From Patescibacteria group bacterium (lineage in GTDB: Bacteria; Patescibacteriota; Microgenomatia; UBA1400; PJMF01), in assembly GCA_039934415.1 (NCBI GenBank), contig JBDTME010000002.1, forward strand, positions 14,351-78,350: a stretch of 64,000 nucleotides of DNA, read 5' to 3'. This document shows, piece by piece, positions 21,076-48,850 of the stretch; position 1 is the first letter of the stretch; every line of letters begins with the position of its first letter. The notes below the pieces were generated by a model. That model did not search any database. It saw nothing but the letters and a program-made list of their open reading frames with translations, and was not told the origin of the DNA. The translations under genes and the position numbers were made by a program.

Positions 21076-21729
21076 GTGTCTGCTGGTTACAATGTCGGCA
21101 TGTTGGCTGTTGAAATCTCACCGTATTTTTTTTCGCGAGAGAAACGCATATTTGACATACTTGTATCTATTTTTTTACTCGCCTTACTTGTTCCACTCTT
21201 TCTCATCATTTCAATCCTGATTATTTTTACTTCAGGGTTTCCCATTTTCTTTATTCAAGACAGAATCGGTAGAGATAAGAAACGTTTTAAAATAATTAAA
21301 TTTCGCACCATGTACCCTCATGCTCACAAAGATCAAAAAAAGTATTGGAAGCTCAATGAGTCTCCTTTTCCAGCCTTCAAACTCGCCGATGACCCTCGGT
21401 TCGTTGGCATTGGGAAATGGCTATCCAAAACGGGCTTGGATGAGCTTCCTCAGCTCATTAACATCCTTCGAGGTGAAATGAGTCTCATCGGTCCACGACC
21501 ACTTCCTCCTCTAGAAGCAAAAAAAATGACAGGAAGTTGGGATTTTCGGTATAAAGTCAGACCAGGAGTTATCTCTTTATGGGCATTATCAGATAAAAGA
21601 CACAAGTCACTGAAGCATTGGCAAAGACTGGAGATACAAACATTGAAAAAAGCCAATCTGCTTAAAGATTTTCTGATTATTTTTCAATCTATAAAAGTGC
21701 CGTTAAAAAATGGACGAAATCATTATTGA
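21076..21729 (+). CDS. polyprenyl-phosphate sugar-1-phosphate transferase (bacterial sugar transferase family, WbaP/PglC-like initiating enzyme)
   Basis: 217 aa with an N-terminal TM. Conserved blocks KFRTM and LDELPQLINILRGEMSLIGPRP are typical of PF02397. Confidence 0.8.
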   Translation: MSAGYNVGMLAVEISPYFFSREKRIFDILVSIFLLALLVPLFLIISILIIFTSGFPIFFIQDRIGRDKKRFKIIKFRTMYPHAHKDQKKYWKLNESPFPAFKLADDPRFVGIGKWLSKTGLDELPQLINILRGEMSLIGPRPLPPLEAKKMTGSWDFRYKVRPGVISLWALSDKRHKSLKHWQRLEIQTLKKANLLKDFLIIFQSIKVPLKNGRNHY

Positions 21730-24641
21730 AAGACTTGCTGCCAAGTTTTTTCACCTTTTATAATTTCACCGACTTTTTTAAATCTATCTTTATCACTATA
21801 CCCTTGATGGAGACAATCTTGATGAGATCCTGGGAATTCTGAAACACATTTACTGTATTCAACTTCCATCTCAGCTTTGTCACCAACAGATAAGAAGTAA
21901 TTGCCAAGTTGTTGGGTGATCCAAAAATCGTTTGGTTTCAAAACATTCATAAACCTTAAAATCATCACTGTTTCCTCAGGATTATTCTTTTGCAACGACT
22001 CTTCAGCCTGGGTCTCTAATTGCCGAATAAATAAATCTAAGCTTGTGTTGTCAGACAATTTAAAAAATTCCGCTAAAGCTAAATATTTTTTTACGCCCTC
22101 CAAGTTTCCTTGCTCATACAAATGGAGACATAAATAAAGTAAAAGTTGATAACTTTTTGCTTTTCTACCTTCATTAATTTTAGGGTAATAATTTTCAAAT
22201 GAGTCAAAATACTTTTGTGCATCCTCAGATTTTATTGATTCAACTGACTCAACATCTAAAAAATGGCCAGTTTTGCTGTTAAAAATCCAGGGATTGATAC
22301 TCAGGGCAGTTTTATAATTTTCAAGTAAGTAATCAAAGTCAATATGTACAGTTTCATTTCCAACCTGAATTAAAGAGCTGGCAAGCATCACCTGATATTT
22401 GTCATCAATATATCCCGCTTTTTTGAGCATCAATTGCCTCGTGTCACTCCAAATCGCTAGCGATTTTTTTGCGCTATCTAAATCCTTATTCGTTTTTGAA
22501 ACATTCATTTTTTCTTGAATCATCCGAGAAATATCAGGCCAAATCAGATGTGCTGTGCCAGGCGAAATGTCTATTGCTCGGTGAAGGCTTAAACTGGTTT
22601 TCTCAAATTCATTCTGATCAAACTGCCATTTAGCAAGCTCCCAATATTTTTGAGCGTATACCCTATTTTGGATTCCAAAATTGTCGGCAGGTATTTGATT
22701 AAGTTGAGTTAAAAATTGCTCTAGTTCCAAACCAGTAACATGCTGCAACTTATACTCATGATCTTGGATACTGAAATGTACTAGTGCATGAGAAAGTACA
22801 TATAACTTTCCTGCAAGCTCAGCTTGCCCTGACAGTAAAAGCTCATCTGCAAAATAGAGTGTTTTATTGGCTAATATCTTTTTTTGTTCAAAAGTAAGAT
22901 TCTGACCATGTGTATTTTTCTCGGCAAATATAACGAACTGTGCCAAGTTAAACACAGTGTCCTGATTCAAACCCATCTTTTTAAAATCTCTCAAGTCTTG
23001 TGTCGAAAAAAAGACAAGCTTCCACGGATCTAAAATGAATAAAGTATTGTTATCTTGGATACTATTTACTGCTGTTCCTACGTCATCAGTGAGAACATAC
23101 GTTTCACTATCGCTTCGATATATCTGTTGGAAAAATGTCGTTTGTTCAGGAGTTAATGATTGACTCGTCAAAAAAGCTTTTCTTTGATAAAAATAATACG
23201 GAAAAATTTGAAATGCAGTGGAAAATTTCCTTTGTGAAAGCAGGCTCTCATTGAGTAAAAATAGGATGCTGTATGCAAAAATAAATATACACGTTATGGT
23301 TGAAATCATGAGTAACCCATGTTTAAGATGAATATCATTCATTTTTTTACTTTGTGTATTACGAGTACCTCTCAAGATAATCGCAATCAGAATGACAACT
23401 ACTAAAAAGAGTGCGGAAAATGACCAGCTAAAATCAAAAAAACTATCAATAGAAGTTGAAAGTAGTGCAACTAACAAAAACGATTGTTCGCTAAATGGCT
23501 GAAGATTTCTTCTGGCATGACTCAAGACAACGAGGAAAATACTGACAAAAAGCAAAATGAAAAAAACGCCGGTAAAAATCCCTGATTCACTAAAAACTTG
23601 TAAAAACGAATTATGCGAGAACGTCGTGAACGCATATGAAGTGGCTCTATATTTACTTGAGATCAGTTGAAAAGTTCCTGGTCCATACCCAGTTAATGGA
23701 TAATTTTTAACACCTTGAAATGCTTCCCTCCAATATTCTGAGCGTAGATCTTTGTCAAGATTCTTGCACAACTTATTTTGCAAAGAAGGAAACGGACATA
23801 CAAATGAAGGTTGAATAATTTGAACAACAGAAAAAAACAATTTAAACGCTATTATCCCTATAAATAAAATTCCCAGGAAAAAAAGTGTGATTCTGTCAAA
23901 ACTGGTTTGTAATTTAATTACACTGGCCCTTTTATTGAAAGAGTGAAGAAAAATAAAGACGTATGATAATTGAAAGAATCCAATGAGAATTGCTACTCGT
24001 GCAAAAGTCGTTAGCAGTAATAGATTGAAAAACACATATAGATACAGGAATTTGTGTTTTTCAAATTTATCAAAATATTTTTTTTCTTCTCGATTTTGTG
24101 GTATTTTTTTAAAATTTAACAAAAAAATAATTGGATTAATCAGTATAATATAAGAGGCAATATGATTATGACCATATGTTTCATATATAAAATTCATGCC
24201 TGGTAAGTGAATTGCCCATTCTAGGTTGAGACGGACCAAAGTACTGATCACAAAAAGCACTCCCCCTATAAGTATCAAAATTAAAAAAAGAAATGATTTA
24301 TTTAAAAAGTTGGACGAAACAAGTAGAAAAAAAACAAAGACAATAAAATAAATACCAGAGAAAAAAATGGATTGCAGACTGAGTGGGAGATTATGGGTGA
24401 AAAAAGCTGAGACACACAAAAAAAATAAGTACAATAGCCACACAGAAATGACAAAAATGTTTGATTGATATTTAAGTTGATTCCAATCTAGTTCCCGCAC
24501 AAAAAAACAAACAAGTACTATAAACGCTCCCCCAGTTACTATTCCCAAGTAGGTCTCTCCCAAAAGAAATTGACACAAAAGAAGAATACTAAAAAAGAAT
24601 AAGAAAAAAAGATCTTTAATTCCAATCAACTTTGAGACCAT
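21723..24641 (-). CDS. O-antigen ligase/Wzy_C-family polytopic membrane protein fused to large C-terminal TPR-like domain
   Basis: 972 aa, at least 12 TM helices. Wzy_C signature SHNSFLQVFSESGIFTG. A C-terminal soluble region of about 500 aa is rich in helical repeats. Confidence 0.6.
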   Translation of the reverse strand: MVSKLIGIKDLFFLFFFSILLLCQFLLGETYLGIVTGGAFIVLVCFFVRELDWNQLKYQSNIFVISVWLLYLFFLCVSAFFTHNLPLSLQSIFFSGIYFIVFVFFLLVSSNFLNKSFLFLILILIGGVLFVISTLVRLNLEWAIHLPGMNFIYETYGHNHIASYIILINPIIFLLNFKKIPQNREEKKYFDKFEKHKFLYLYVFFNLLLLTTFARVAILIGFFQLSYVFIFLHSFNKRASVIKLQTSFDRITLFFLGILFIGIIAFKLFFSVVQIIQPSFVCPFPSLQNKLCKNLDKDLRSEYWREAFQGVKNYPLTGYGPGTFQLISSKYRATSYAFTTFSHNSFLQVFSESGIFTGVFFILLFVSIFLVVLSHARRNLQPFSEQSFLLVALLSTSIDSFFDFSWSFSALFLVVVILIAIILRGTRNTQSKKMNDIHLKHGLLMISTITCIFIFAYSILFLLNESLLSQRKFSTAFQIFPYYFYQRKAFLTSQSLTPEQTTFFQQIYRSDSETYVLTDDVGTAVNSIQDNNTLFILDPWKLVFFSTQDLRDFKKMGLNQDTVFNLAQFVIFAEKNTHGQNLTFEQKKILANKTLYFADELLLSGQAELAGKLYVLSHALVHFSIQDHEYKLQHVTGLELEQFLTQLNQIPADNFGIQNRVYAQKYWELAKWQFDQNEFEKTSLSLHRAIDISPGTAHLIWPDISRMIQEKMNVSKTNKDLDSAKKSLAIWSDTRQLMLKKAGYIDDKYQVMLASSLIQVGNETVHIDFDYLLENYKTALSINPWIFNSKTGHFLDVESVESIKSEDAQKYFDSFENYYPKINEGRKAKSYQLLLYLCLHLYEQGNLEGVKKYLALAEFFKLSDNTSLDLFIRQLETQAEESLQKNNPEETVMILRFMNVLKPNDFWITQQLGNYFLSVGDKAEMEVEYSKCVSEFPGSHQDCLHQGYSDKDRFKKVGEIIKGEKTWQQVFQ

Positions 24642-24642
24642 A

Positions 24643-25362
24643 TCATGATTTTTGAGCTAGAATGATAACGCTCGAGCCAAATGGCAAATTAACATGTTTT
24701 AAGGCCCAAGCTTCAAACTTCATTATTTTTTTCAGGATTGCATTCAAAACTGAAGGAACTTTGTCGACATAATTCTCACTTTGTATCTGCTTTTTAACCA
24801 ATCGATGTAGTATGAAAAGAGGAAAAACAAAGCAAAAAATATTCGACGATCGCAATACTTTGAATCCAGATAATTTTATTAACTCTTCTAACTCCTTTTT
24901 TCGAAATCTTTTTTTTGCTTCCATTGCCTCATCATGCTTACTCCATAACCAAGGACAAATACAGTCAGTAACAATGATATATCCCTTATGCTTTAACACT
25001 CGATGAGCTTCTGACAGAGCTTTTATTTCATCTACTTGCTTATGATAGAGCACGTCGCAAAAGGCAACTAGATCAAAATTAGTGTCTTGCAATGGCAGGA
25101 CGTTGGCCGAACCTTTTATTGCTGTTATTTTCCTTCTTAATAGTTTTTCGTAAGCTAACTGATTTTTTTCTACGGCAGTGACTTTACCCCATTCTGAAAA
25201 GAGAGTAGTTATTCCACCTGTTCCTGCGCCAACATCCACAATTTTTTTTCTACCATCACCTAAAAACTGAGTAATGAAAACTCGAATGAAATTTCTTTTT
25301 GAAATAAACCACCAATGGTGATCTTCTAAATCAGCCATTTGAGTGTACTCATTTTTTTTCAT
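24643..25362 (-). CDS. class I SAM-dependent methyltransferase
   Basis: Motif I VDVGAGTGG; 239 aa; lies within the glycan locus. Confidence 0.7.
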   Translation of the reverse strand: MKKNEYTQMADLEDHHWWFISKRNFIRVFITQFLGDGRKKIVDVGAGTGGITTLFSEWGKVTAVEKNQLAYEKLLRRKITAIKGSANVLPLQDTNFDLVAFCDVLYHKQVDEIKALSEAHRVLKHKGYIIVTDCICPWLWSKHDEAMEAKKRFRKKELEELIKLSGFKVLRSSNIFCFVFPLFILHRLVKKQIQSENYVDKVPSVLNAILKKIMKFEAWALKHVNLPFGSSVIILAQKS

Positions 25363-25440: not shown

Positions 25441-25890
25441 ATGAAAATTTTAATTGTAACCTCATCTGGAGGGCACTTATTTAAGACTTTTCAACTTAAG
25501 CCATGGTGGTCAAAGTATGAAAGAGTTTGGGTTACCAAAAAAGACGAGTTTTCGGAGAGCATCTTAAATGGTGAGAAGATTATTCCCGGCAATTTTCCTG
25601 AACAAAGAAATATACTAAATTTTTTTAAAAATTTGTTCTTTGCTCTCAAATTACTCCGTACCGAAAAACCAGACCTCATCTTCTCGATGGGCGCTGGCAT
25701 TGCTCCACCGTTCTTTCTGGTTGCAAAACTATATAAAATTAAGACAGTCTTCATCGAAACATTTATCTCTATTAGTCAATCAACCATTTCAGGGAAAATG
25801 ATTTACCCACTTGCTGATCTCTTTTTAGTACAAAATAAAAAGCTGCTGCACGTCTATAAAAAAAGTCTATACTTGGGACCAATCCTGTGA
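25441..25890 (+). CDS. Alg14-like glycosyltransferase membrane-anchor subunit (PssD/Cps14F-like)
   Basis: 149 aa; N-terminal ILIVTSSGGH; overall Alg14-like layout; overlaps the downstream Alg13-like gene. Confidence 0.6.
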   Translation: MKILIVTSSGGHLFKTFQLKPWWSKYERVWVTKKDEFSESILNGEKIIPGNFPEQRNILNFFKNLFFALKLLRTEKPDLIFSMGAGIAPPFFLVAKLYKIKTVFIETFISISQSTISGKMIYPLADLFLVQNKKLLHVYKKSLYLGPIL

Positions 25891-26375
25891 TATTTATCAG
25901 TTTGGGCACTACATTAATACCCTTCCCTAGGCTGATTGAATCCAGTTTAGAAATCTTGAGTAACACCAGACAAGAGATTCACATTCAACACGGAAATACT
26001 CCAGTTGAGAGTCAAAGTAAATCAATCATCACAACACCATATATTTCTAACTCTGAAATGATTGAGGAAATAAGAAATGCAAACATGATAATATGTGCTG
26101 CAGGAGAGGCAACAGTTTTTCAGATATTACAAAATGCTCGTTATAAACCCATCCTTTTCCCTAGATTAAAAAAGTTCCATGAGCACGTTGATGACCAGCA
26201 ATTGTCTATTGCACAATACTTTGAAAAAAAAGATAAAGCATATTGTGCTTTAGATAGTGAACAACTTCAACAAATTATGAATGAATATCCAGTATTAGAA
26301 AAGAATAACCATCTAAGAAAAGAAACGAATAAAAAAATAATTGACAAATTAATTAGATTTACCGAAAACTTGTGA
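25887..26375 (+). CDS. Alg13-like glycosyltransferase catalytic subunit (GT28 C-terminal domain, PssE/Cps14G-like)
   Basis: 162 aa; starts IFISLGTT like Alg13/MurG C-domain proteins; paired with the Alg14-like gene. Confidence 0.55.
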   Translation: MIFISLGTTLIPFPRLIESSLEILSNTRQEIHIQHGNTPVESQSKSIITTPYISNSEMIEEIRNANMIICAAGEATVFQILQNARYKPILFPRLKKFHEHVDDQQLSIAQYFEKKDKAYCALDSEQLQQIMNEYPVLEKNNHLRKETNKKIIDKLIRFTENL

Positions 26376-27352
26376 ATAAAAAACAAAAGAAAATAATTCT
26401 GGTGACTGGTGCTGCAGGCTTCATTGGGTCAAACTTAGCAAACGAACTGCTTCGCCTCAATTACCAAGTAGTTGGTCTCGATAATTTTTTAGATAACTAT
26501 GAGGTTTCCATTAAAAAAAATAATATTCGACGGCTGTTAAGTTTTAAGCACTTCACTTTTTATGAAACCAACATACTTGATGTAACTGACTTAGAAAAGA
26601 TTTTCAGTACCTACCGATTTGACATTATTATTCATTTAGCCGCTCGAGCTGGTATCCGTCCTTCACTAGTACTGCCCCAAGCATATTTTGAAACAAATGT
26701 GATAGGCACCATCAATATCTTAGAGCTCATGCGAAAAAAATCCATTAAACAACTTATTTTCGCAAGCTCTTCAAGTGTGTACGGAAATAACAAAAAAACG
26801 CCTTTTTCAGAAACAGACAATACTGATCATCCTGTTTCACCATATGGGGCTTCCAAAAAATCAGCGGAAATTATTTGTCAGACGTACGCCCATCTTTACC
26901 AAATCCAAACCACTGTTTTCCGATTCTTTAGTGTGTATGGAAATGCAGGTCGACCTGATATGGCACCCTATATTTTCTCTCAAGCAATCCTCCATAAAAA
27001 ACCCATTCGAGTATTTGGCAAATCAATAACTAGAGACTACACCCATATCGACGATATTGTGCGTGGGATCATTTCTGGGATTGAGCATCCAACCCAATTT
27101 GAAATCATTAACTTAGGAAACAACTCACCAATTGGTCTGGAACAGCTAATAGGTTCCTTGGAAAAAATCCTGCACAAAAAATCAGACGTGATACATGAAG
27201 GGAGAGTTTCTGGAGACGTGAATACTACTTATGCTGATATTCGAAAAGCAAAAAAATTACTTGATTGGGAACCGCTTGTCTCTCTAGAAAAAGGACTTAA
27301 ACAATTCACAAAGTGGCTACAAATGAACGGCCCTACACATGATTCCAGTTAG
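26372..27352 (+). CDS. NAD-dependent nucleotide-sugar epimerase/dehydratase (extended SDR)
   Basis: Rossmann motif VTGAAGFIGSNL and catalytic YGASK (YxxxK); 326 aa. Confidence 0.85.
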   Translation: MNKKQKKIILVTGAAGFIGSNLANELLRLNYQVVGLDNFLDNYEVSIKKNNIRRLLSFKHFTFYETNILDVTDLEKIFSTYRFDIIIHLAARAGIRPSLVLPQAYFETNVIGTINILELMRKKSIKQLIFASSSSVYGNNKKTPFSETDNTDHPVSPYGASKKSAEIICQTYAHLYQIQTTVFRFFSVYGNAGRPDMAPYIFSQAILHKKPIRVFGKSITRDYTHIDDIVRGIISGIEHPTQFEIINLGNNSPIGLEQLIGSLEKILHKKSDVIHEGRVSGDVNTTYADIRKAKKLLDWEPLVSLEKGLKQFTKWLQMNGPTHDSS

Positions 27353-28451
27353 TCGAACACATATACCAAAAAAATCAGTGCAGCTTGTAACAGAGTGTCT
27401 CAACAGCGGTTGGATTTCTGGTCAGGGCAAATATGTTGAAAAATTTGAAAAAAAGTTTTCTCAATTCGTCGGTACAAAGTACGCATTAGCTACGAATTCA
27501 GGCACATCCGCACTTCATTTAGCGATACTAACTCTAGGTATTGGCCCGGGTGACGAAGTGATTTTGCCAGCATCAACCATTGCATCCTGTTTTTTTGCGA
27601 TCTGGTATACAGGAGCAAAAGCCATTCCTGTTGACGTAACACCCGACACCTACACTATAAATCCTCAGCTCATAGAGTCACACATCACAAAAAACACTAA
27701 AGCAATCATGGCTGTTCATCTCTATGGACATCCTTGCGACATGGATGCATTAGTTCATCTCTGTCATAAGCACAAATTATTCTTGATTGAGGACGCAGCT
27801 GAAGCACACGGAGCAGAATACAAAGGTAAAAAAGTTGGAAGTTTTGGTGACGTAAGCTGTTTTAGCTTCTACGCTAATAAACTCATCACAACTGGCGAAG
27901 GTGGCGCAGTGGTAACAAATAGTAATTCACACCATGTGCTTGCTAAAAAACTAAGAACACTTTATTTTTCTGATCAAAAACGATTTATTCATGATGGTAT
28001 CGGATATAAGTACGTGATGACAAATCTGCAAGCAGCGCTCGGCCTCGCTTCTCTAGCAGAGATAAAGAAATCAATTTCATTCAAAAAGAAAATGGCAGAG
28101 TTATACCAAAATCATCTCTATGAGATTCCAGGTTTAATACTTCCGATAGAAAAAGTGAACTGTTCAAACGTATATTGGATGTATGCCATTTGTATTGAGG
28201 AAAAAAAGTTTGGAATGAATAGAGATCAACTCATGGATATTTTATGGAATAAATATCATATCGAAACGCGAACATTTTTTTATCCCCCAAACATAGCCTT
28301 TGCATCTCTAGGCGTTTTCTCAAAACAATATTTCCCTATAGCTGATAAAATCTCTCAAGAAGGTCTGTACTTACCATCAGGTCTAGGGAACACTACTGAA
28401 GAGTTTAAGGCAGTTTGTAATGCAATCCAAAAAATTTCCAAAACCCATTAA
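27339..28451 (+). CDS. DegT/DnrJ/EryC1/StrS-family PLP-dependent sugar aminotransferase (ArnB/WecE-like)
   Basis: 370 aa; N-terminal block VTECLNSGWISGQGKYVEKFEKKF...ATNSGTSALHLA and a Lys-containing active-site region typical of the family. Confidence 0.85.
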   Translation: MIPVSRTHIPKKSVQLVTECLNSGWISGQGKYVEKFEKKFSQFVGTKYALATNSGTSALHLAILTLGIGPGDEVILPASTIASCFFAIWYTGAKAIPVDVTPDTYTINPQLIESHITKNTKAIMAVHLYGHPCDMDALVHLCHKHKLFLIEDAAEAHGAEYKGKKVGSFGDVSCFSFYANKLITTGEGGAVVTNSNSHHVLAKKLRTLYFSDQKRFIHDGIGYKYVMTNLQAALGLASLAEIKKSISFKKKMAELYQNHLYEIPGLILPIEKVNCSNVYWMYAICIEEKKFGMNRDQLMDILWNKYHIETRTFFYPPNIAFASLGVFSKQYFPIADKISQEGLYLPSGLGNTTEEFKAVCNAIQKISKTH

Positions 28452-33686: not shown

Positions 33687-33729
33687 GATACAATAGTATT
33701 ATCCTTGAGAAAATGCTACATTGCATGAC

Positions 33730-35526: not shown

Positions 35527-35528
35527 AT

Positions 35529-38770: not shown

Positions 38771-39613
38771 TTATAGTTCTTTTTCTTCAAGAATCTCTGT
38801 GATGATTGCGTAGGATACTGATGATTTTTCAGTTTGAGCCCAGACTTGCATACCAATCTTTATTGGTTGATCTTCGTTGAAATAACACACGCCTAGTTCA
38901 CAATTTGCAGTAAGTTGAACTTCAGTTTCAATATTACGATGTAGATCACTTTCAACAAATTGCATGGTCCCTCCCTCTACTTTAGCTACCTCTTCAGTGG
39001 AAGGTTTCACCGAAAGCACTTTTACAATCTGGAAAATTTGATTGTTCTTTTCGTCATAAACTGTAAAGGAATCGTCATACGTCTTCAGTAACCAAATAGG
39101 AACATTTCTCATAAAAAGTTTTAATCTAAACTTTTTTTTTGAAACTATATTTTGATCTTCAGAGTTATGAATTCGCTGAATTAAACCTGTAAATTTTACA
39201 TTCTTAATAGTTAACGTAAGATTATCACCAATCCTTAATCTTTGATTTCCATAGCTATAGAGTTGAGTTCTGCTATTTAATAACGCATCTATCCCTACAG
39301 ACACTCTTAAGTAGCGAAATTCTCCACCATAGTCAACATTTTGTACTTTGTTGACAGTTCCAACCAGTTTGCCAAATTCATTGTATATCTTATCTTGTTC
39401 ATGAATCGAGTTTGTCAACCAATATTGAGGTGGTGGACCACCTGGGTAGTAACTAGACTGCGCAACTAAATCAATTATTACTTGTTTTTTTGACCTGGAA
39501 AACCAAAAAAGTGAAAACAAAATTGCGACCGCAACGATAAGAATGATTAACATCTCTATTAAAGTTAATTTTCTAATTTTTCTCAGAATCGATGAAAAAA
39601 ATTGATTTGTCAT
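38771..39613 (-). CDS. hypothetical membrane-anchored protein
   Basis: N-terminal TM (LIEMLIILIVAVAILFSLFWF). Start placed at the internal Met abutting the stop of the Wzy-like gene; the ORF-track start 39727 would overlap it by 118 nt. Confidence 0.35.
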   Translation of the reverse strand: MTNQFFSSILRKIRKLTLIEMLIILIVAVAILFSLFWFSRSKKQVIIDLVAQSSYYPGGPPPQYWLTNSIHEQDKIYNEFGKLVGTVNKVQNVDYGGEFRYLRVSVGIDALLNSRTQLYSYGNQRLRIGDNLTLTIKNVKFTGLIQRIHNSEDQNIVSKKKFRLKLFMRNVPIWLLKTYDDSFTVYDEKNNQIFQIVKVLSVKPSTEEVAKVEGGTMQFVESDLHRNIETEVQLTANCELGVCYFNEDQPIKIGMQVWAQTEKSSVSYAIITEILEEKEL

Positions 39614-41055: not shown

Positions 41056-42190
41056 GCCATTGGATCATCCTTTTGAGCTCACTGCTGATTACCAAAACCA
41101 AACAGCTCAGATCTTATCACGGAAATACCAGTTCAAAGTACTAGCTTACAGAGCTTATGAAAGTCAAATTAGGCCATGGAAACTATTCCAAAAGACTAAC
41201 AGAAAAAAATTGTTTGAAATTAGTCCACAGGGAAATATTCTGTTGGTGAGTCCTGTTCACATTATACCATTTGAAAGATTTCAATTTATCTATGAGATTA
41301 ATAAAAAAATTTCCTTTGTTTTGTGGGTACTCGCTGCCCAAATTTATTTTAGAAAAATACAAACAACCTTATGGATATTTCATCCAAGGTTTTTTTGGAC
41401 TGTGAGTAGTTCGTCAATTATTTTTGCTAAAAAAAGAGTTGTTTACGATTGTTTAGATTATTTAAGTTCGATCAAAAAAAAAGAGGAAAGCTTGCTCAGA
41501 ACCGGCGAAAAGTATTTATTTAAAAAAAGTGATCTTGTCGTTTTTAATTCCCAGTTTTTGGCAAACTTTCATAAAAAAAACATTTCAGATGGTCTTGTCT
41601 CTCCCTCTGGATTTGTGGTACCTACACAACTTCTAGAAAAAGAAAAAAAAACGGAAGAAGTACCAAACATTGGTTTTGGTGGTTCAATAAATTACAGGAT
41701 CGACTTTGATCTAATAACTGAGGTGTGTAAAAAATTACCTAATTTTCAGTTCAAATTTTATGGTGAATCATATACAGCGGAAGAGGACGATTTATTAGAT
41801 GTAAAAAAGAAAATGGAAACGTTTTTTAAATTGAAAAATGTCGAGCTTGTTCAATTTACGCCCCGGGAAAAACTTTATAAACAGATGGTTAGTTGGGACG
41901 TTGGTATTATTCCTTATAACCTTAAGGTTCCTTTAAATTATTATTGTAAGCCTTTAAAGTTGTATGAATATTTCTATTTTGGACTTCCAGTTGTAAGCGT
42001 GCCAATTCCGTCTATTAGACAATACTCTGATGTTGTATATTTGGCTGAATCGGCAAATGATTGGATCCAGGCCATTCAAGAGGCTGTAAAAAATAAACAG
42101 ACCAGCCACCAATTGTCATACAAAAAAAATGAAGCACTCAATAACTCCTGGGAGAAAAAAATCGAATTTATTTTAAAAAAAATGAAATAA
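41054..42190 (+). CDS. glycosyltransferase (GT1/GT4-like C-terminal domain)
   Basis: C-terminal GLPVVSVPIPSIRQY after KPLKLYEYFYF resembles the GT4 donor-binding region. Start moved to an internal Met to avoid overlap with the convergent Wzy gene (ORF-track start 41009). Confidence 0.45.
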   Translation: MPLDHPFELTADYQNQTAQILSRKYQFKVLAYRAYESQIRPWKLFQKTNRKKLFEISPQGNILLVSPVHIIPFERFQFIYEINKKISFVLWVLAAQIYFRKIQTTLWIFHPRFFWTVSSSSIIFAKKRVVYDCLDYLSSIKKKEESLLRTGEKYLFKKSDLVVFNSQFLANFHKKNISDGLVSPSGFVVPTQLLEKEKKTEEVPNIGFGGSINYRIDFDLITEVCKKLPNFQFKFYGESYTAEEDDLLDVKKKMETFFKLKNVELVQFTPREKLYKQMVSWDVGIIPYNLKVPLNYYCKPLKLYEYFYFGLPVVSVPIPSIRQYSDVVYLAESANDWIQAIQEAVKNKQTSHQLSYKKNEALNNSWEKKIEFILKKMK

Positions 42191-42191
42191 A

Positions 42192-43109
42192 ATGGAATTT
42201 TCAATAATTGTCCCAACTAGAAATCGATATGTTTTATTAAAAAAACACCTGGACAGACTTCTCTTTCTTGACTATCCAAAAGATAAATATGAAGTGATCG
42301 TAGTAAATAACTCAGCTGAAGACGATCAAACTCAAATATACCTTCGTGAACTTTCTAAAAAGCATAAGAATTTTCGTTTTCATCAGGAAATGCGTTTAGG
42401 CCCATCGTTTGCTCGGAATGCTGGAATAAAAATGGCAAAATATCCATTTCATATTCTTATTGATGATGATATTGAAGTAAAAAAAACACTTTTAAAAGAA
42501 TTTGTGTTAGCTTGGCAGAAGCATAGTAAAGCAATCGCAATTGGTGGAAAAATCATTGCTAAACCTACCATAGGTCAACTTGGTGAGAAACAAGAGAGGT
42601 TGATCACAAAACACAGTTGGGTATTTGGACAGCAAGACAAAGGCTCTCAAGAAGTTCAAATTCAAAAAGGTGAAATGTTATGTTCAGGTACTCTTGGACT
42701 ACATCAAAAGGAAAAAAATCTGATTCTATTCGATCACAGGTTAGGAATCAGTCTGAACCCAGATACAATATTGTATGGTGAAGACAGTGAATTATGTACT
42801 CGATTATTTTTAAATAAACATGAGATTTGGTATGTTCCTGATATTATTACAATCAATCACTTCAATAGACAACGTTTAACAGATAAATACCTCTCCAAGC
42901 GGTATTTCACTAATGGTTTAGAAATTTATTTGGCTGATTCAATCTTAAAAAAACACTTTCCTCATTACGATTCTTCCTATGGAATAAGATTAAAACAAGA
43001 ATTGACAAAATTATTATTTTTTAATTTTTCAGTCTTCAAGAAATATATAAGAACTAAATATGATTTTATAATGATATTTAGTTATTTTTTCTGTGGCAGA
43101 TATTTTTAA
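42192..43109 (+). CDS. glycosyltransferase family 2
   Basis: FSIIVPTRNR, VIVVNNSAEDDQT and IDDDIEV (DxD) blocks. Confidence 0.75.
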   Translation: MEFSIIVPTRNRYVLLKKHLDRLLFLDYPKDKYEVIVVNNSAEDDQTQIYLRELSKKHKNFRFHQEMRLGPSFARNAGIKMAKYPFHILIDDDIEVKKTLLKEFVLAWQKHSKAIAIGGKIIAKPTIGQLGEKQERLITKHSWVFGQQDKGSQEVQIQKGEMLCSGTLGLHQKEKNLILFDHRLGISLNPDTILYGEDSELCTRLFLNKHEIWYVPDIITINHFNRQRLTDKYLSKRYFTNGLEIYLADSILKKHFPHYDSSYGIRLKQELTKLLFFNFSVFKKYIRTKYDFIMIFSYFFCGRYF

Positions 43110-44023
43110 AAAATTCTCTTGCCAAAAGATAGTATGGAGTAAAAAAAATTAAAACTCATTTTTTTTACAATATTCGTGGTTTTACTTCTTTTTCGTTGAG
43201 TAAGATTTACTTCATCACTTGTAAGGAGATAGTGCTTCCACATTGTTTGAAAATAACTTTTATTCTGCCAAGGTTTAGCGCTATTTCCAAATGGACAAAA
43301 ATGTAGAATGGTTCCCCAGATTAAAAAATATGGCAAAAAATATTTGATGTGAATATATTCTGGAGATGTGTTGAAACGCAAAGGCAATTTCTGCCACTGT
43401 TTATAAAAATAAAAATTCAAGATTGATTGATCACCATAATATGAAATGTCGTTATATTTTTTTTGAAATTTTTTTAATTTTTGGAAAGTGTTTTTCTTAA
43501 TAACAGAAGTTTCAAATGCGAGGACTCCACTATTGAAAGAAGGCTCTGTAAAGTCTAAATCATTGAGAAGCTCTTGCCTCAATCTTTCGTGTTTGTCTTT
43601 CATTTTTTTGAATGAATCATTTTTACGGAATTGATATCCTAAAGTGTGATCATCTAAATCTGGTGCAGCCCAAAATCCTTTTACTTTTTCAAAAAAATCT
43701 AAGTTGTGTGTAACAATTGCATCTGCATCAATATAAAGAACAGTATCCCATTTTTTAAAGTATCTTGTAAAAAGTCGTAATTTTAAGCCAACTATAGAGG
43801 GCATAATACCAATTTCCCGTTTATCTTTGTTAGAGTAAGTTTTGACTAGAATACCTCTATTCTGAAACCATTGAACTTCGCGCAGTGGAATTCCATCAGT
43901 AATGAGTAAATAATCACCTTTCCAACCAGAGGTATGATAAACACTTGAAAAAAGCTGTTTGGCTTGTGAAATATATTTCTTATTCGCTAATGTAGCAATC
44001 ACACTGCTTGACATAACAATCAA
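43106..44023 (-). CDS. glycosyltransferase family 8 (LgtC/glycogenin-like)
   Basis: GT8 triad of motifs: YIDADAIV, FNSGVLAF, GDQSILNF. Confidence 0.65.
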   Translation of the reverse strand: MIVMSSSVIATLANKKYISQAKQLFSSVYHTSGWKGDYLLITDGIPLREVQWFQNRGILVKTYSNKDKREIGIMPSIVGLKLRLFTRYFKKWDTVLYIDADAIVTHNLDFFEKVKGFWAAPDLDDHTLGYQFRKNDSFKKMKDKHERLRQELLNDLDFTEPSFNSGVLAFETSVIKKNTFQKLKKFQKKYNDISYYGDQSILNFYFYKQWQKLPLRFNTSPEYIHIKYFLPYFLIWGTILHFCPFGNSAKPWQNKSYFQTMWKHYLLTSDEVNLTQRKRSKTTNIVKKMSFNFFYSILSFGKRIF

Positions 44024-44053
44024 ATATTAAAATTATGGCTAAGTTATAAACTT

Positions 44054-44950
44054 TTATAATGATAAAAAACCTGCCAAGTAACCTGAAAAGAACGCTATAT
44101 CTCTTATAAAAAATCCAAATTTATATTTTTTATCCAAATTTGGTATTGATAGCGACTCTATGGTTTTAAATATATGAAAAAAATGAAAGAAAAAATTCTT
44201 CAACTTGCTACTAGCATGTAGATCTATGGATTGCCGAGAAAAAGAAAAAGTTCCAAGTCCATAGTAATACCATTGTCTAAAAAAACTCCTTAGACTTGTT
44301 CTAAAATCATCAAAAACGATAATAGATGAATCGAAATCAAGCTTCCCGCCTTTTGCTAATATTTGCTGACAAAAATCATAGTCTTCAATAACACCTTTAA
44401 AAATTCGAATCTTAATTTTATTTTTGTGTATGTATTGAATATCAAAAATGCTATTCCCACCAGGGATAAAGTGAATCTTGTTTGTTTTCAAGTATCTATT
44501 AACTTCAATCTTTTCCCATATTTGGTTCCAATAATTATTCTCGTAATGAGAAGTTCTCTTTCCTCCCAATCCAACAACACTGGCATTTTTTTGGAAATAT
44601 TTCTGAATATTTAAGATCCAATCTTTATCTGGAATTTGATCATCATCCAAAAAAGCCACATACCTGGATTTAACTAGAGATAATCCTTTGCTTCTTGCCA
44701 CATCAACACCTTTAATTTCAGGGATTTCTTTATATGTATACGGAACTGAAGATTGGTCTAGTAACTTTAAGACTGTTTTTCGAAAAAAAATCGAGATTGC
44801 ATTAATTGCAACACTGTTGTCTATAATTATGATATTTTCTGGCAAATTTGTATTTAAAAGGAGAAAAGTAACAGCCCTAAGTAACAACTCAGACCTATCT
44901 CTAGTAATAATGAGTACATCGACCTTGGGGATTGTTTCTTTAACACTCAT
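44054..44950 (-). CDS. glycosyltransferase family 2
   Basis: VDVLIITRDR, IIIIDNS, AFLDDDQ. Confidence 0.75.
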   Translation of the reverse strand: MSVKETIPKVDVLIITRDRSELLLRAVTFLLLNTNLPENIIIIDNSVAINAISIFFRKTVLKLLDQSSVPYTYKEIPEIKGVDVARSKGLSLVKSRYVAFLDDDQIPDKDWILNIQKYFQKNASVVGLGGKRTSHYENNYWNQIWEKIEVNRYLKTNKIHFIPGGNSIFDIQYIHKNKIKIRIFKGVIEDYDFCQQILAKGGKLDFDSSIIVFDDFRTSLRSFFRQWYYYGLGTFSFSRQSIDLHASSKLKNFFFHFFHIFKTIESLSIPNLDKKYKFGFFIRDIAFFSGYLAGFLSL

Positions 44951-45801: not shown

Positions 45802-45813
45802 AAGTCACTAGAT

Positions 45814-46623
45814 CTACATCCAATCATCAAAGAATTTAGCTTCTTTTTGAAAATACCACCAACCGATCATAAAAATAAAAAAAGCCGTGAGTAAATTACA
45901 AAAAATAAATAGAGGTGAGCTAAACGTCTGATTAAGTAGTATGACTTGAAAACCTTCAATCAGTGAAGTCATCGGGTTTAACATAAATAACCATCTGACT
46001 TTTTCTGGAAGCAAATTGAGTTGATATACCACTGGTGTCACATAAAACCAAAGAGGCATAATGGCAGAGACCACGAAGTTTACATCACGGTATTTGACAT
46101 TAAGCGCGCTAGTTAATAGCACAGTCCCAGCTGTGAGCACACAAAGCCAGATGATTAAGGGCAGAGTCCACAACATATTTCCCAAATACATCAGTAAATG
46201 AAAAAAAGTATAGCGCTCAAAAAACATTTTGTTGAAAACTAAGGCAAGTAATAACAGGCTAAATGCGATCAAAAAGTGAAATAAGTTCGATAAAATTATC
46301 GAAAGCACAATTGACTCTCTAGGGAATTTGGCTTTTTGAATCAAGGATCTTTCAAAGATAATGGCTGGAGTACATTTTAAAACAGTCATTGAAAAGAAGT
46401 TCCAAGGCAGAAGTCCTGTGAACAAAAACAAAAAATAGTTATCAACTTTCACTGGTACAAAAAACTGAAACACAAACCCCATAACAAGCATCTGAAGTAA
46501 CGGATTTAAAACGATCCATAAGAAACCAAGGACTGCAAATTTATACCTGGCCTTGATTTCCTTGCCAGTCATTGCCAGAAGAAAATCAATATAATATTTT
46601 TGCTGAGTGGTAAGTATTTGCAC
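45814..46623 (-). CDS. ABC-2 type polysaccharide-export permease (Wzm/TagG-like)
   Basis: 269 aa, 6 TM helices; adjacent upstream of the ATPase gene. Confidence 0.75.
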   Translation of the reverse strand: MQILTTQQKYYIDFLLAMTGKEIKARYKFAVLGFLWIVLNPLLQMLVMGFVFQFFVPVKVDNYFLFLFTGLLPWNFFSMTVLKCTPAIIFERSLIQKAKFPRESIVLSIILSNLFHFLIAFSLLLLALVFNKMFFERYTFFHLLMYLGNMLWTLPLIIWLCVLTAGTVLLTSALNVKYRDVNFVVSAIMPLWFYVTPVVYQLNLLPEKVRWLFMLNPMTSLIEGFQVILLNQTFSSPLFIFCNLLTAFFIFMIGWWYFQKEAKFFDDWM

Positions 46624-46974: not shown

Positions 46975-46983
46975 AAGGGCAGC

Positions 46984-48678
46984 ATGCACATTTTAGGCAT
47001 TTCTTGTTTTTATCATGACTCTGCGGCTAGTTTGGTTCGGGATGGTAAAGTCATTGCTGCAACAGCTGAAGAACGTTTTACTCGCAAAAAGCATGATAAT
47101 AATTTTCCCTATAAATCAATAGATTTTTGTTTGGACTTTGCAGGATTGGCCATCAATGAATTAGATGCGATTGTCTTTTACGAAAAACCAATCGTCAAAT
47201 TTGAGCGGATTTTATCTCAGCACCTTGATCATTTCCCCAAAAGTTATGCGTCTTTTTTCAACACCTCAGCATCGTGGTTGAATCAAAAGCTGAACATCAA
47301 AAAAATACTTAAAGATGAACTCCACTATCACGGTGAAGTGTTGTTCATTCCGCATCATTTGTCACACGCAGCGAGCGCATATTATCTCTCCCCTTTTTCA
47401 GAAGCCTCGATCGTTACTATAGATGGAGTCGGAGAATGGGCCACGACTACGGTTGGTATTGGTAAAAAAGCTGAGGTCAGCATTCAAAAAGAGATTTGTT
47501 TTCCTCACTCACTTGGTTTGCTCTACAGCACCTTGACGACCTACTTGGGTTTCTCAGCAAATGATGCTGAATACAAGGTCATGGGGCTCGCTGCCTATGG
47601 TGATCCCAAACCATTTCGCAAACATTTCAACAAAATAATTCAGATCAAAAAAGATGGCAGCTACTGTCTCAACATGGAGTATTTTGATTTTGACTGGGCG
47701 GAACACATGGCATCCTCAAAAATGGTTGAACTGTTTGGTTATCCAGCACGCGAACCTGAGAGTAAAGCCTACTCATATCATGAGAACATTGCCGCTTCTC
47801 TCCAAGAGAAACTCGAGCAGGTCGTGTTCAATCTGCTAGACGCAACGTACAAAGAACACCAACTCCCCAATCTCTGCTTAGCAGGCGGTGTAGCTTTAAA
47901 CTCGGTGATGAATGGCAAGATTTTGTCGAAGACCAAGTTTAAGGAATTATTTATTCCACCTGATCCGAGTGATGCCGGTGGTTCAATGGGTGCGGCATTG
48001 TATGTATGGCACCAGACGCAAAAGAAAAAAACGAATCCCCATTTTAGTCCGTATTTAGGACCGAATTTCCCGTCCTATCAGGTAGAGCAAATTTTAAAGC
48101 AACATAAACTGAAATATGAATTTGTTGAAAAAAAGAAGTTGGTCAAGAAGATGGCTAAGTGCATTGTTGATCAAAAAGTGATTGGTTGGTTTCAAGGCAG
48201 AATGGAGTGGGGTCCACGCGCTTTAGGAAATAGAAGCATCCTTGCTTCTGCTGCTACTGAAAAAATGAAAGATATTATTAACGCTCGAGTCAAACATCGG
48301 GAGTTGTTCCGACCATTTGCACCAGTCATTTTAGAAAAATACGTCAGTACTTATTTTGAAGCTGATAAAAATGTGCCGATATCGGCTAAATGGATGTTGA
48401 TGGTGTATCCATTTAAAAAAATTGGCAAAAAAAATGTGCCTGCGGTCTACCATGTTGATGGAACTGGCAGACTGCAAACGCTGTCACGAACTGATAACTC
48501 ACTTTACTATGATCTGGTTTTGGAACATTACCGATTAACCGGTGTGCCAATTATCATTAATACCTCTTTTAATGTGCGCGGTGAACCTATTGTGTGCACG
48601 CCTGAAGATGCGATAAACTGCTTTTTGAAAACAGATATTGATTATTTGGTCATCGACCAATTTCTGGTTTCAAAATAG
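46984..48678 (+). CDS. carbamoyltransferase (NodU/CmcH/NovN family)
   Basis: N-terminal ILGISCFYHDSAASLVRDGKVIAATAEERFTRKKHD (ASKHA-like Carbam_trans_N); 564 aa with the C-terminal Carbam_trans_C region. Confidence 0.85.
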   Translation: MHILGISCFYHDSAASLVRDGKVIAATAEERFTRKKHDNNFPYKSIDFCLDFAGLAINELDAIVFYEKPIVKFERILSQHLDHFPKSYASFFNTSASWLNQKLNIKKILKDELHYHGEVLFIPHHLSHAASAYYLSPFSEASIVTIDGVGEWATTTVGIGKKAEVSIQKEICFPHSLGLLYSTLTTYLGFSANDAEYKVMGLAAYGDPKPFRKHFNKIIQIKKDGSYCLNMEYFDFDWAEHMASSKMVELFGYPAREPESKAYSYHENIAASLQEKLEQVVFNLLDATYKEHQLPNLCLAGGVALNSVMNGKILSKTKFKELFIPPDPSDAGGSMGAALYVWHQTQKKKTNPHFSPYLGPNFPSYQVEQILKQHKLKYEFVEKKKLVKKMAKCIVDQKVIGWFQGRMEWGPRALGNRSILASAATEKMKDIINARVKHRELFRPFAPVILEKYVSTYFEADKNVPISAKWMLMVYPFKKIGKKNVPAVYHVDGTGRLQTLSRTDNSLYYDLVLEHYRLTGVPIIINTSFNVRGEPIVCTPEDAINCFLKTDIDYLVIDQFLVSK

Positions 48679-48706
48679 GATCAAAAATACTAATTGAAAG
48701 ACAATT

Positions 48707-48850
48707 ATGTACAAAGAACTTTTTCATTTCCTGATGCAAAATAAAAAATGGTGGTTGCTGCCGCCAATTATTATTTTCGTTATATTTGGTGCATTGGTTA
48801 TTTTTTCGACAACATCACCTGTCAGTCCTTTTATCTACATGTTATTTTGA
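48707..48850 (+). CDS. DUF5989-like micro-protein (47 aa) associated with carbamoyltransferases
   Basis: Not in the ORF track (under 60 aa). Translation MYKELFHFLMQNKKWWLLPPIIIFVIFGALVIFSTTSPVSPFIYMLF has the KKxWLxP...GAL...PFIYxLF pattern remembered for DUF5989/SxtK-like peptides. Starts 29 nt after the carbamoyltransferase stop. Confidence 0.45.
   Translation: MYKELFHFLMQNKKWWLLPPIIIFVIFGALVIFSTTSPVSPFIYMLF

Follow-up and report, generated by a model that had tools for sequence, protein, structure and literature searches.

We analysed a 64,000-nucleotide stretch of contig JBDTME010000002.1 (GenBank assembly GCA_039934415.1, a Patescibacteria group bacterium; hereafter the window), in which a block of glycan genes at 21076-48850 lies between the genes for MurJ, PilN and PilO upstream and an array of Pro/Thr-rich surface proteins downstream. 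The original prediction placed the block between the same neighbours and read it as an AT-rich island of about 27 genes dedicated to glycosylating the Ser/Thr/Pro-rich surface proteins, with a 972-amino-acid (aa) Wzy_C-TPR fusion as candidate O-oligosaccharyltransferase. From its gene content the block is almost certainly a locus for cell-surface glycans in a Microgenomates-type Patescibacteria bacterium. Its conserved part is a pair of genes, encoding a small initiating phosphoglycosyltransferase and the 972-aa protein (hereafter long Wzy_C), and a second, short Wzy_C protein is encoded further downstream. Patescibacteria are monoderms (PMC11665869), so lipopolysaccharide (LPS) is not the expected product.

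Composition and gene content of the block

The guanine-plus-cytosine (GC) content was 0.343 across 21076-48850 compared with 0.411 (1-21075) and 0.433 (48851-64000), with minima of ~0.29-0.31 around 39-45 kb of the window, and windowed GC thus confirmed the AT-richness. The 25 block genes differed from 28 flank genes in per-gene GC (Mann-Whitney p = 1.8e-9) and in GC at third codon positions (GC3, p = 1.8e-4). GC skew was uninformative because gene orientations are mixed in the block. We counted 25 open reading frames (ORFs) in 21076-48678 instead of about 27, the majority overlapping or spaced <35 bp.

Pfam and NCBIfam scans of the block proteins recovered every gene class listed previously, including both Wzy_C proteins, and resolved the glycosyltransferases into three GT2, three GT4-type and one GT8 enzyme, with three membrane-anchored SGNH proteins. 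The scans also added a PMT_2 GT-C enzyme, a PssD/PssE pair, an NDP-sugar epimerase/dehydratase, a DegT aminotransferase, a WbuC cupin and a conserved DUF4330-like partner of the short Wzy_C. Of the block proteins, Wzm, the GT-C enzyme and both Wzy_C proteins are multi-pass, and a few others have one or two predicted helices. Neither a Wzx flippase nor a PCP/Wzz protein was found among the block proteins by Pfam and transmembrane (TM) prediction.

The long Wzy_C-TPR protein

Both Wzy_C assignments were borne out by PF04932 scores above the cut-off (Table 1). The AlphaFold model of the long Wzy_C (pLDDT 86) has 13 membrane helices and then an all-helical region at 473-972, which we describe as a 12-TM core of the WaaL fold, a thirteenth TM helix and a predicted 500-aa tetratricopeptide repeat (TPR) solenoid. 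The core has the multi-pass WaaL-type arrangement with a large external loop after TM9, and its best structural match was WaaL (7TPG/7TPJ). In structure, the C-terminal region matched the TPR superhelices of OGT, SPINDLY, APC/C subunits and designed CTPR proteins. There was no Pfam match to TPR in the 972-aa protein; a long-family profile searched against PDB sequences found consensus TPR proteins at E 1e-19. The cytoplasmic side is indicated by loops rich in Lys and Arg (178-200, 236-246, 377-378 and 426-436), so by the positive-inside rule the catalytic loop (277-344) and, past helix 13, the TPR domain are predicted to be extracytoplasmic. The proposed fusion therefore stands as a WaaL-fold core with a large TPR domain, an architecture shared with WsfB and PglL (PMC2943079).

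Residues N150, G157, H158, R215, R300, G318, G320, H343, N344, E352 and D403 were invariant in 25 long-family sequences, and R215, R300 and H343 are the counterparts of the catalytic-loop Arg/Arg/His of WaaL (R215/R288/H338). The family had 852 representatives at E<=1e-30, with at least 150 proteins at E<1e-114, mostly of 590-1100 aa and covering most of the profile. It forms hundreds of 50%-identity clusters, and its taxonomically placed relatives were mostly Patescibacteria. C-terminal extensions spanned 72-500 aa (median 305) and were at least 218 aa in all members but one. A database copy identical to the 972-aa protein, from a Patescibacteria metagenome-assembled genome (MAG), is annotated 'O-antigen ligase family protein'.

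Single-sequence PDB searches with either Wzy_C protein yielded nothing useful. The long-family profile matched 9rmk_A ('Oligosaccharyltransferase', 610 aa) at 34.2 and 33.1 bits (E ~1e-7) compared with 19.2 and 20.4 bits for WaaL. Residues R298, P313, G316, G318, H349, H400, E404 and P406 of 9rmk_A carry the numbering of Neisseria meningitidis PglL (PMC3643930), and we therefore took 9rmk_A as a PglL-type enzyme. The alignment to 9rmk_A reached past the region shared with WaaL into the PglL 'LEYPLW' segment, pairing D403 with E404. G318 and G320 aligned with PglL G316 and G318, and this Gly-x-Gly also occurs in solved WaaL. The large TPR solenoid stands where PglL has Wzy_C_2.

Conserved position and variable content

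Related loci (numbered L or P) were sought with an alignment of eight long-family sequences, and 19 were compared. Their MAG labels were Pacebacteria, Woesebacteria, Gottesmanbacteria or plain Patescibacteria, with several labelled otherwise (e.g., 'uncultured Pseudomonadales'). Orthologues of the phosphoglycosyltransferase (50-59% identical) adjoined the long Wzy_C in ~15 of the 19. In the window, this gene closes a + strand string MurJ-PilN-PilO-unk148-fn3-unk375, and the string LepA-S20-MurJ-PilN-PilO-148aa-fn3-phosphoglycosyltransferase-long Wzy_C also occurred in L002/L006, L004, L010, L011, L020 and the P0011 locus. The rest of the locus differed among relatives, some having the carbamoyltransferase with SGNH proteins and others PssD/PssE, and the variable part also held PMT_2-like enzymes and further Wzy_C proteins. 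Export route varied as well, with Wzx adjoining the long Wzy_C in L004 and Wzm/Wzt in the window and L008. The comparative genomics proposed originally thus bore out the position of the locus in relatives, while its content beyond the initiator and the long Wzy_C varied. Since the long Wzy_C stays fixed while glycosyltransferases and export route change, it appears to behave as a ligase with relaxed donor specificity instead of a repeat-unit-specific polymerase, and on these comparisons we consider it likely to be a ligase.

Calling the block an island implied recent transfer, which our results did not support. Under that explanation the block would have arrived recently as a genomic island, functionally unrelated to the genes around it, its low GC reflecting foreign origin and its position accidental. 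GC is 7-9 points under the flanks, and low GC is common in glycan clusters, including the S-layer glycosylation (slg) clusters of Bacillales, where it has frequently been read as lateral transfer (PMC2943079). However, at least six divergent relatives have the phosphoglycosyltransferase, the long Wzy_C and a glycan cluster after LepA-S20-MurJ-PilN-PilO-fn3, and in the window the phosphoglycosyltransferase gene lies only 7 nt from its upstream neighbour in the same direction. No integrase, transposase, flanking repeat or bordering tRNA was found at the block, where the only repeats were short AT-rich chance repeats. Because the position is conserved and there are no marks of mobile elements, the block is not a one-off horizontal acquisition, and recent insertion is very improbable. 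As judged by synteny, the locus is a fixed chromosomal site with hypervariable content, like O-antigen and capsule loci.

The (LepA-)S20-MurJ-PilN-PilO-small TM protein-fn3 string upstream (window 15029-21068) was common to L002, L004, L010, L011, L020, L023, L027 and L030. No PilM or pilin gene was recognised within or beside it in the loci seen, and in some lineages it continues into LPxSG-type surface-protein genes. Rather than a pilus alignment complex, this string may encode a module for assembling surface proteins or the envelope.

Genes of the locus

Table 1 Genes of the glycan block and the candidate acceptors encoded beside it. Positions refer to the window; bits and E values are from Pfam or NCBIfam searches.
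Feature	Position	Strand	Evidence
fn3 membrane-anchored protein, Ser/Thr/Pro-rich stalk, C-terminal PISGS then TM; putative acceptor	18775..19860	+	fn3/Pur_ac_phosph_N
375-aa Pro/Thr-rich membrane protein, ends PVSGS then TM; putative acceptor	19941..21068	+	sequence
Small initiating phosphoglycosyltransferase, PglC/WbaP-C-terminal type, 217 aa, one TM	21076..21729	+	Pfam Bac_transf E 1.5e-52; NCBIfam EPS_sugtrans, WbaP
Long Wzy_C-TPR, 972 aa; candidate en bloc glycan ligase / O-oligosaccharyltransferase	21723..24641	-	Wzy_C 45.7 bits, cut-off 31.7
S-adenosylmethionine (SAM)-dependent methyltransferase	24643..25362	-	Methyltransf_11 E 2.3e-13
PssD/Cps14F (Alg14-like) membrane-anchor subunit of split glycosyltransferase	25441..25890	+	PssD 124.7 bits > cut-off 110; Pfam Alg14
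PssE/Cps14G (Alg13-like) catalytic subunit of split glycosyltransferase	25887..26375	+	Glyco_tran_28_C; PssE 74.5 bits < cut-off 120
NDP-sugar 4-epimerase or 4,6-dehydratase (SDR)	26372..27352	+	Epimerase/GDP_Man_Dehyd E 1e-56
DegT/LegC/PseC-type sugar aminotransferase	27339..28451	+	DegT_DnrJ_EryC1 E 5e-111; LegC family 296.8 bits
GT-C glycosyltransferase, 703 aa	28420..30531	+	PMT_2 33.9 bits, cut-off 26.1
WbuC-family cupin	30528..30932	+	TIGR04366 40.5 bits, cut-off 42
Soluble GT2	30945..31652	-	Glycos_transf_2 E 3.6e-30
SGNH/GDSL protein 1, membrane-anchored	31670..32674	+	Lipase_GDSL_2 E 6e-4; N-terminal TM helix
SGNH/GDSL protein 2, membrane-anchored	32700..33686	+	Lipase_GDSL_2 E 7.7e-6; N-terminal TM helix
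AsnB-type glutamine amidotransferase	33721..35526	+	Asn_synthase E 2.4e-86; TIGR01536 430 bits > cut-off 267
SGNH/GDSL protein 3, membrane-anchored	35490..36536	+	Lipase_GDSL_2 35.6 bits > cut-off 32.9
GT4 glycosyltransferase a	36518..37645	+	Glycos_transf_1 E 1.2e-32
GT4 glycosyltransferase b	37634..38767	-	Glycos_transf_1 E 6.4e-31
Bitopic membrane protein, partner of short Wzy_C	38771..39727	-	DUF4330 E 2.1e-5, below cut-off
Short Wzy_C, 481-aa ORF	39610..41055	-	Wzy_C 50.0 bits, cut-off 31.7
TuaH-like GT4	41009..42190	+	NCBIfam TuaH 77 bits, far under cut-off 550
GT2 glycosyltransferase b	42192..43109	+	Glycos_transf_2 E 1.9e-19
GT8 glycosyltransferase	43106..44023	-	Glyco_transf_8 E 7.6e-18
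GT2 glycosyltransferase c	44054..44950	-	Glycos_transf_2 E 2e-14
Wzt/TagH-type ABC ATPase, 245 aa	45064..45801	-	ABC_tran; TagH 202-217 bits, galactan Wzt 193 bits, under cut-offs
Wzm ABC-2 permease	45814..46623	-	ABC2_membrane E 1.6e-12
NodU-type O-carbamoyltransferase	46984..48678	+	Carbam_trans_N E 5e-89; Carbam_trans_C E 2.8e-68
Array of six surface proteins with Thr/Pro-rich linkers; putative acceptors	48930..58261	+	translations; DUF11, VWA domains
Array protein 1	48930-50495	+	
Array protein 2	50607-51962	+	
Array protein 3	51971-53548	+	
Array protein 4	53524-55503	+	
Array protein 5	55660-56535	+	
Array protein 6	56612-58261	+	

Precursor and tailoring genes. The methyltransferase gene immediately precedes that of the long Wzy_C, both being on the minus strand. 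The top NCBIfam matches of the epimerase/dehydratase were GalE, RmlB and LegB, each below cut-off. SGNH/GDSL protein 1 may handle O-acyl groups of the glycan, and orthologues of SGNH/GDSL protein 3 adjoined the carbamoyltransferase in L007, L010 and L011. The AsnB-type amidotransferase, of which wsfA in the Paenibacillus alvei slg cluster is a homologue (PMC2943079), may amidate sugar acids. The carbamoyltransferase gene has a GC of 0.41, which equals genome level; its orthologues in L007, L010, L011 and L012 are 59-65% identical and adjoin the long Wzy_C in relatives.

Export. The Wzt/TagH-type ATPase is without a C-terminal carbohydrate-binding extension. An orthologue of Wzm (46% identical) is located beside the short Wzy_C module in L008.

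Short Wzy_C module. Gene callers start the short Wzy_C at 40962, giving 450 aa. The protein carries an Arg...Gly-x-Gly...His motif, and R350, G367, G369, H394 and further Arg residues were invariant in seven short-family sequences, its relatives being highly divergent in sequence. Its AlphaFold2 model (pLDDT 78) had WaaL as best fold match (TM-scores 0.56/0.61), and the fold search returned only WaaL and SEDS proteins, which does not separate ligase from polymerase. The short-family profile matched only WaaL among PDB sequences, and a broad profile around the family scored 73 bits to WaaL versus 61 bits to PglL. No oligosaccharyltransferase-like signal appeared for the short protein. The short Wzy_C, its DUF4330-like partner and the TuaH-like GT4 were found together in only six loci among those seen. 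Outside the window, the short Wzy_C and partner pair was in L001, L008, L013, L020 and the P0011 locus, the TuaH-like GT4 co-occurred with the short Wzy_C in L005, L008, L013 and L020, and Wzm/Wzt accompany it in the window and L008. Because it co-varies with its partner and the glycosyltransferase, it belongs to the exchangeable, glycan-specific portion of the locus. It could be either a polymerase, as are TuaE and SscD (PMC11841062), or a second ligase, as is TacL (PMC5727136), and two oligosaccharyltransferases in Acinetobacter (cited in PMC12645811) would parallel the latter. As listed, the ORF of the short Wzy_C shares 118 nt (39610-39727) with that of its partner, which most likely starts at an internal Met near 39613, making the two genes abut.

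GT-C enzyme and its GT2 neighbour. The GT-C enzyme has at least nine TM helices and a ~300-aa C-terminal soluble part by TM prediction, and it had no sequence relative in the PDB. It matched PMT_2 only, without PMT (PF02366) and PMT_4TMC. The best NCBIfam matches of the adjacent soluble GT2 were PgfS (61 bits, cut-off 500), AglJ, ArnC and PpgS, all far under cut-off, and it is probably a polyprenyl-phosphate sugar synthase that partners the GT-C enzyme.

Neighbouring surface proteins as candidate acceptors

The fn3 protein is a conserved neighbour of the phosphoglycosyltransferase, and its orthologues in eight loci keep the Ser/Thr/Pro-rich stalk and a (L/V/I)PxSG(S/N) plus TM tail. The gene of the 375-aa protein follows that of the fn3 protein, is the co-directional neighbour 7 nt upstream of the phosphoglycosyltransferase, and has an orthologue in L002. 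In five of the six array proteins, the combined share of Ser, Thr and Pro in 40-aa windows rose to 0.6-0.85; in the DUF11 protein (array protein 4) it was below 0.6 throughout. Array proteins 2, 4 and 6 end in LPKSG or LPKAG followed by TM. The (L/V/I)PxSG(S/N) or LPK(S/A)G plus TM tails resemble an LPXTG-type sortase signal with Ser or Ala replacing Thr. We found no sortase gene in the window and no S-layer homology (SLH) or S-layer domain in the window proteins scanned.

Four array proteins (within 50607-58261) have an N-terminal TM helix and then the motif APN(A/V)PxSQPKA. A metagenome scan with an alignment of the surface-protein (SP) N-termini gave no confirmed match, whereas a degenerate DNA pattern for the motif found ten metagenome loci (L022-L031) with the same N-terminal TM context. 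In the eight of these ten where the C-terminus was present, it had an LPxSG/IPKAG plus TM end. The motif looks like an unrecognised processing or sorting signal. In L023, L027 and L030 the motif-bearing gene directly follows PilN-PilO-fn3 with no glycan locus between, and therefore the glycan locus of the window sits inside what is in those loci a contiguous surface-protein locus. In L027 the gene next after the motif-bearing gene encodes a complete PMT protein O-mannosyltransferase. This 814-aa protein (961-3405, +; PMT, PMT_2 and PMT_4TMC) is convergent with the SP-type gene on a candidate phyla radiation (CPR) metagenome contig, and BLASTP of the window GT-C enzyme against it found no similarity. 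A glycan locus inside a surface-protein locus and a PMT gene in one lineage fit functional coupling, and known O-oligosaccharyltransferase genes are often neighbours of their substrates (PMC12645811).

Further features of these proteins and their surroundings include a second N-terminal motif, G(V/L)YL(G/T)Q...NRQQA after TM, in array proteins 1 and 3 (both Cys-rich) and in the 375-aa protein. Array proteins 1, 3 and 5 share a C-terminal Cys-containing domain, 'RYEFR...CRxC...WE'. The long antisense ORFs at 49193-49705, 52318-52740 and 55644-56189 (-) are low-complexity coding artefacts and not genes. Just past the array is a tRNA-Ile with anticodon TAT (58328-58402, +), an uncommon bacterial way to read AUA, and beside the array is a 777-aa TrwB/TraG-like type IV secretion coupling ATPase (58832-61165, -). 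Two class A penicillin-binding proteins (transglycosylase and transpeptidase) are encoded in tandem near the start of the window (1196-3574 and 3813-6230, +).

Proposed pathway and alternatives

We infer the following order of steps, sugar identities and acceptor from the observed gene content, folds, catalytic residues, synteny and variability. The small PglC-like phosphoglycosyltransferase would initiate the glycan on undecaprenyl phosphate, probably with an amino-deoxy sugar that the dehydratase and the aminotransferase supply. Cytoplasmic extension of the chain would fall to PssD/PssE and the GT2, GT4 and GT8 enzymes, its tailoring to the methyltransferase, amidotransferase, carbamoyltransferase and SGNH proteins, and its export to Wzm/Wzt. 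The long Wzy_C would then move the chain en bloc from its lipid carrier to an acceptor on the outer membrane face through the WaaL/PglL-type Arg/Arg/His site, with the outward 500-aa TPR solenoid selecting the acceptor. The chain would most likely be attached to Ser/Thr residues of the LPxSG-anchored surface proteins encoded on either side of the locus, within their Pro/Thr-rich stalks. As a side decoration, the GT2 and the PMT_2 GT-C enzyme may attach individual sugars, donated from polyprenyl phosphate, to these proteins or else to the glycan.

A protein acceptor, which would make the long Wzy_C an O-oligosaccharyltransferase analogous to WsfB/WsaB and PglL, is the interpretation we favour, with a probability of roughly 0.45. 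In support, the phosphoglycosyltransferase is in one gene string with two stalked surface proteins, the long-family profile scored 33-34 bits to the PglL-type enzyme against 19-20 to WaaL, and the long Wzy_C behaves like a ligase in staying beside the initiator while glycosyltransferases and export route vary. These points uphold part of the original proposal for the 972-aa protein. Several results weigh against it. The checks for PglL_A (PF15864) and Wzy_C_2 (PF11846) found neither in either Wzy_C protein even at E<=10, and no NCBIfam equivalog matched them apart from a weak BcsC-TPR hint; TPR domains are found too in polysaccharide-export scaffolds such as BcsC. The PglL-over-WaaL margin of ~13 bits was gone with a profile of the 14 closest sequences, for which WaaL was the sole match. 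PglL H400 and P406 are unconserved in the long family, where they align with Asn/Asp and Asp/Ser. The monoderm Wzy_C protein TacL ligates an undecaprenyl diphosphate (Und-PP)-built chain to a non-protein acceptor, Glc-diacylglycerol (PMC5727136), and another Patescibacteria MAG groups a Wzy_C gene with three GT9 genes and a monogalactosyldiacylglycerol (MGDG)-synthase-type glycolipid synthase. By domain content the 972-aa enzyme falls outside the PglL class, because the two defining domains are absent, though it may work like PglL. PglL_A and Wzy_C_2 are also missing from the TfpO and TfpM O-oligosaccharyltransferases, and a Wzy_C domain alone is insufficient to assign function (PMC12645811). 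A wider hypothesis is more doubtful: that Patescibacteria have a general protein O-glycosylation system of their own, in which the long Wzy_C-TPR serves as O-oligosaccharyltransferase and is hard-wired into the MurJ-PilN-PilO-fn3-LPxSG locus, with the exchangeable low-GC genes providing a lineage 'serotype' glycan on sortase-type anchored adhesins.

The monoderm host had been taken to imply a glycoprotein and not LPS. LPS is indeed not expected, but the argument passed over TacL (PMC5727136) and TuaE/SscD (PMC11841062), and each points to another product. The long or short Wzy_C could be TacL-like and transfer an Und-PP-linked polymer to a membrane glycolipid, giving a lipoteichoic acid-like or LPS-like coat with the surface proteins not targeted. 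Both window Wzy_C proteins have the WaaL fold and catalytic Arg/His, the short-family profile matches WaaL only, and the ABC ATPase is closest to TagH-type teichoic-acid exporters. However, TacL and WaaL are ~400 aa without an extra domain while the long family is always C-terminally extended, its profile favours PglL over WaaL, and no glycolipid synthase or teichoic-acid-specific genes were recognised in the window by Pfam or NCBIfam. A lipoglycan is an unlikely product. The MAG cluster mentioned above (L032; GCA_040756075.1, JBFLZX010000001.1, 1-17500) encodes a 411-aa Wzy_C, three GT9 (heptosyltransferase-family) enzymes, a 465-aa Bac_transf protein, a HAD phosphatase and the MGDG-synthase-type gene, and suggests a glycolipid-anchored, LPS-core-like glycan in a monoderm. 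A wall polysaccharide or capsule, with one or both Wzy_C proteins acting as inverting Wzy-type polymerases like TuaE and SscD and any peptidoglycan attachment left to enzymes encoded elsewhere (e.g., LCP), is also quite unlikely. The majority of beta-linking Wzy polymerases have Wzy_C (PMC12502699), as do the Firmicutes proteins TuaE and SscD (PMC11841062), the short Wzy_C is beside a TuaH-like GT4 in the variable, glycan-specific part, Wzx adjoins the long Wzy_C in L004, and exopolysaccharide (EPS) genes are important when Saccharibacteria grow as epibionts (PMC10633639). The window nonetheless has an ABC exporter, which delivers finished chains, in place of Wzx and PCP/Wzz; domain scans found no LCP gene in the window or the flanks of related loci; and the long Wzy_C is constant while the repeat-unit glycosyltransferases change, unlike a repeat-unit-specific polymerase.

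The last explanation is compatible with the others and concerns which enzyme glycosylates the stalks. Thr/Pro-rich linkers, the kind present in these surface proteins, are the classical Pmt targets in actinobacterial O-mannosylation. By analogy with the actinobacterial Pmt or streptococcal Pgf system, the Thr/Pro-rich stalks could be modified by the PMT_2 GT-C enzyme, using a polyprenyl-phosphate sugar from the GT2, and not by Wzy_C. The PMT_2 score is above the Pfam cut-off and the gene is beside a GT2 whose best matches are polyprenyl-phosphate sugar synthases, a complete PMT adjoins an SP-type gene at the equivalent locus of another CPR lineage (L027), and related loci repeatedly include PMT_2-like enzymes in their variable part. 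Against this, the enzyme is without PMT and PMT_4TMC and dissimilar to the L027 PMT, PMT_2 includes ArnT-like lipid and glycan modifiers, the GT2 matches are far under equivalog cut-offs, and the GT-C enzyme is not conserved across related loci. We regard this assignment as possible but somewhat doubtful. The original claim that the block glycosylates the Ser/Thr/Pro-rich proteins accordingly holds as far as a dedicated surface-glycan locus is concerned, though it overlooked a GT-C enzyme of a kind that uses such linkers.

Significance

Glycosylation in Patescibacteria is essentially unexplored, and this locus offers a concrete and testable entry. Our search of the literature available to us found no paper on protein glycosylation in the group, and a 2024 study of Saccharibacteria pili only predicted O-glycosylation sites and called the processes unexplored (bioRxiv 10.1101/2024.11.25.624915). 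These cells live attached to others, so the chemistry of their surface is expected to influence which hosts they choose, how they adhere and how sensitive they are to phages. Three leads follow. The pairing of the small phosphoglycosyltransferase with the Wzy_C-TPR enzyme is conserved and easy to recognise, the latter belongs to a large family whose members could be assayed in E. coli glyco-engineering strains with no need to grow the organism itself, and candidate acceptor proteins are encoded next door. If the long Wzy_C glycosylates the Thr/Pro stalks, it would be a new O-oligosaccharyltransferase scaffold for bioconjugation, and if general O-glycosylation is native to these bacteria, a lineage-specific glycan could shape host attachment of episymbionts and phage recognition. 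Were the product a lipoglycan or wall polymer, the locus would be an ordinary though large surface polysaccharide cluster.

Comparison with known systems

Compared by gene content and architecture, the slg clusters of Bacillales appear to be the closest analogue, and Neisseria PglL the next. The slg hosts (Geobacillus stearothermophilus NRS 2004/3a with WsaB, P. alvei CCM 2051T with WsfB) are monoderms, and their clusters combine Wzm/Wzt, a WbaP-type (Bac_transf) initiator and a final Wzy_C transferase in one low-GC cluster that also includes a methyltransferase and an asparagine-synthase homologue; WsfB and PglL carry a C-terminal TPR motif, as the long Wzy_C does (PMC2943079). In contrast to slg, we recognised no S-layer gene, the long Wzy_C has a much bigger TPR part (500 aa), and the block encodes a GT-C enzyme and one further Wzy_C. 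Its putative acceptors are Thr/Pro-rich stalks with LPxSG-type anchors, while slg uses Tyr/Thr/Ser of an S-layer protein.

PglL shares with the long Wzy_C the Arg/Arg/His of the Wzy_C core, an outward C-terminal helical repeat domain, a Pro-x-x-Gly-x-Gly equally spaced from the second Arg (R298/P313/G316/G318 in PglL, R300/P315/G318/G320 here) and an acidic residue at the E404 position (D403 here). Like the block, the Neisseria pgl genes include a small phosphoglycosyltransferase and an aminotransferase, suggesting an amino-dideoxy start sugar. Differences from PglL are that PglL_A and Wzy_C_2 were not detected and H400 and P406 are unconserved, that the host is a monoderm exporting by ABC transporter and not by a Wzx-type flippase, and that the stalks are Thr-rich while known PglL enzymes mostly use Ser. 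TacL (RafX) of Streptococcus pneumoniae is likewise a monoderm Wzy_C protein that transfers an Und-PP-built chain to an external acceptor, and its pathway also begins with an amino-dideoxy sugar (PMC5727136). At 397 aa without an extra domain, and with a glycolipid acceptor, TacL differs from the long Wzy_C with its 500 extra residues and is nearer in format to the short Wzy_C (450-481 aa), and teichoic-acid genes were not recognised in the window.

The Pmt (GT39, Actinobacteria) and Pgf (Streptococcus mutans) systems share with the window a GT-C enzyme, a polyprenyl-phosphate sugar synthase-like GT2 and Thr/Pro-rich or Thr-rich surface-protein regions as likely targets, but the window enzyme is PMT_2 only and unrelated by BLAST to the L027 PMT. 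Gram-negative O-antigen loci with WaaL resemble the locus as hypervariable low-GC clusters at a fixed chromosomal site, with a ligase of relaxed donor specificity served by a Wzx-dependent or ABC-dependent route, and WaaL (7TPG/7TPJ) is the best structural match. This locus differs in belonging to a monoderm without a lipid A-core acceptor, and in having its putative ligase within the locus, beside the initiating transferase and bearing a TPR domain.

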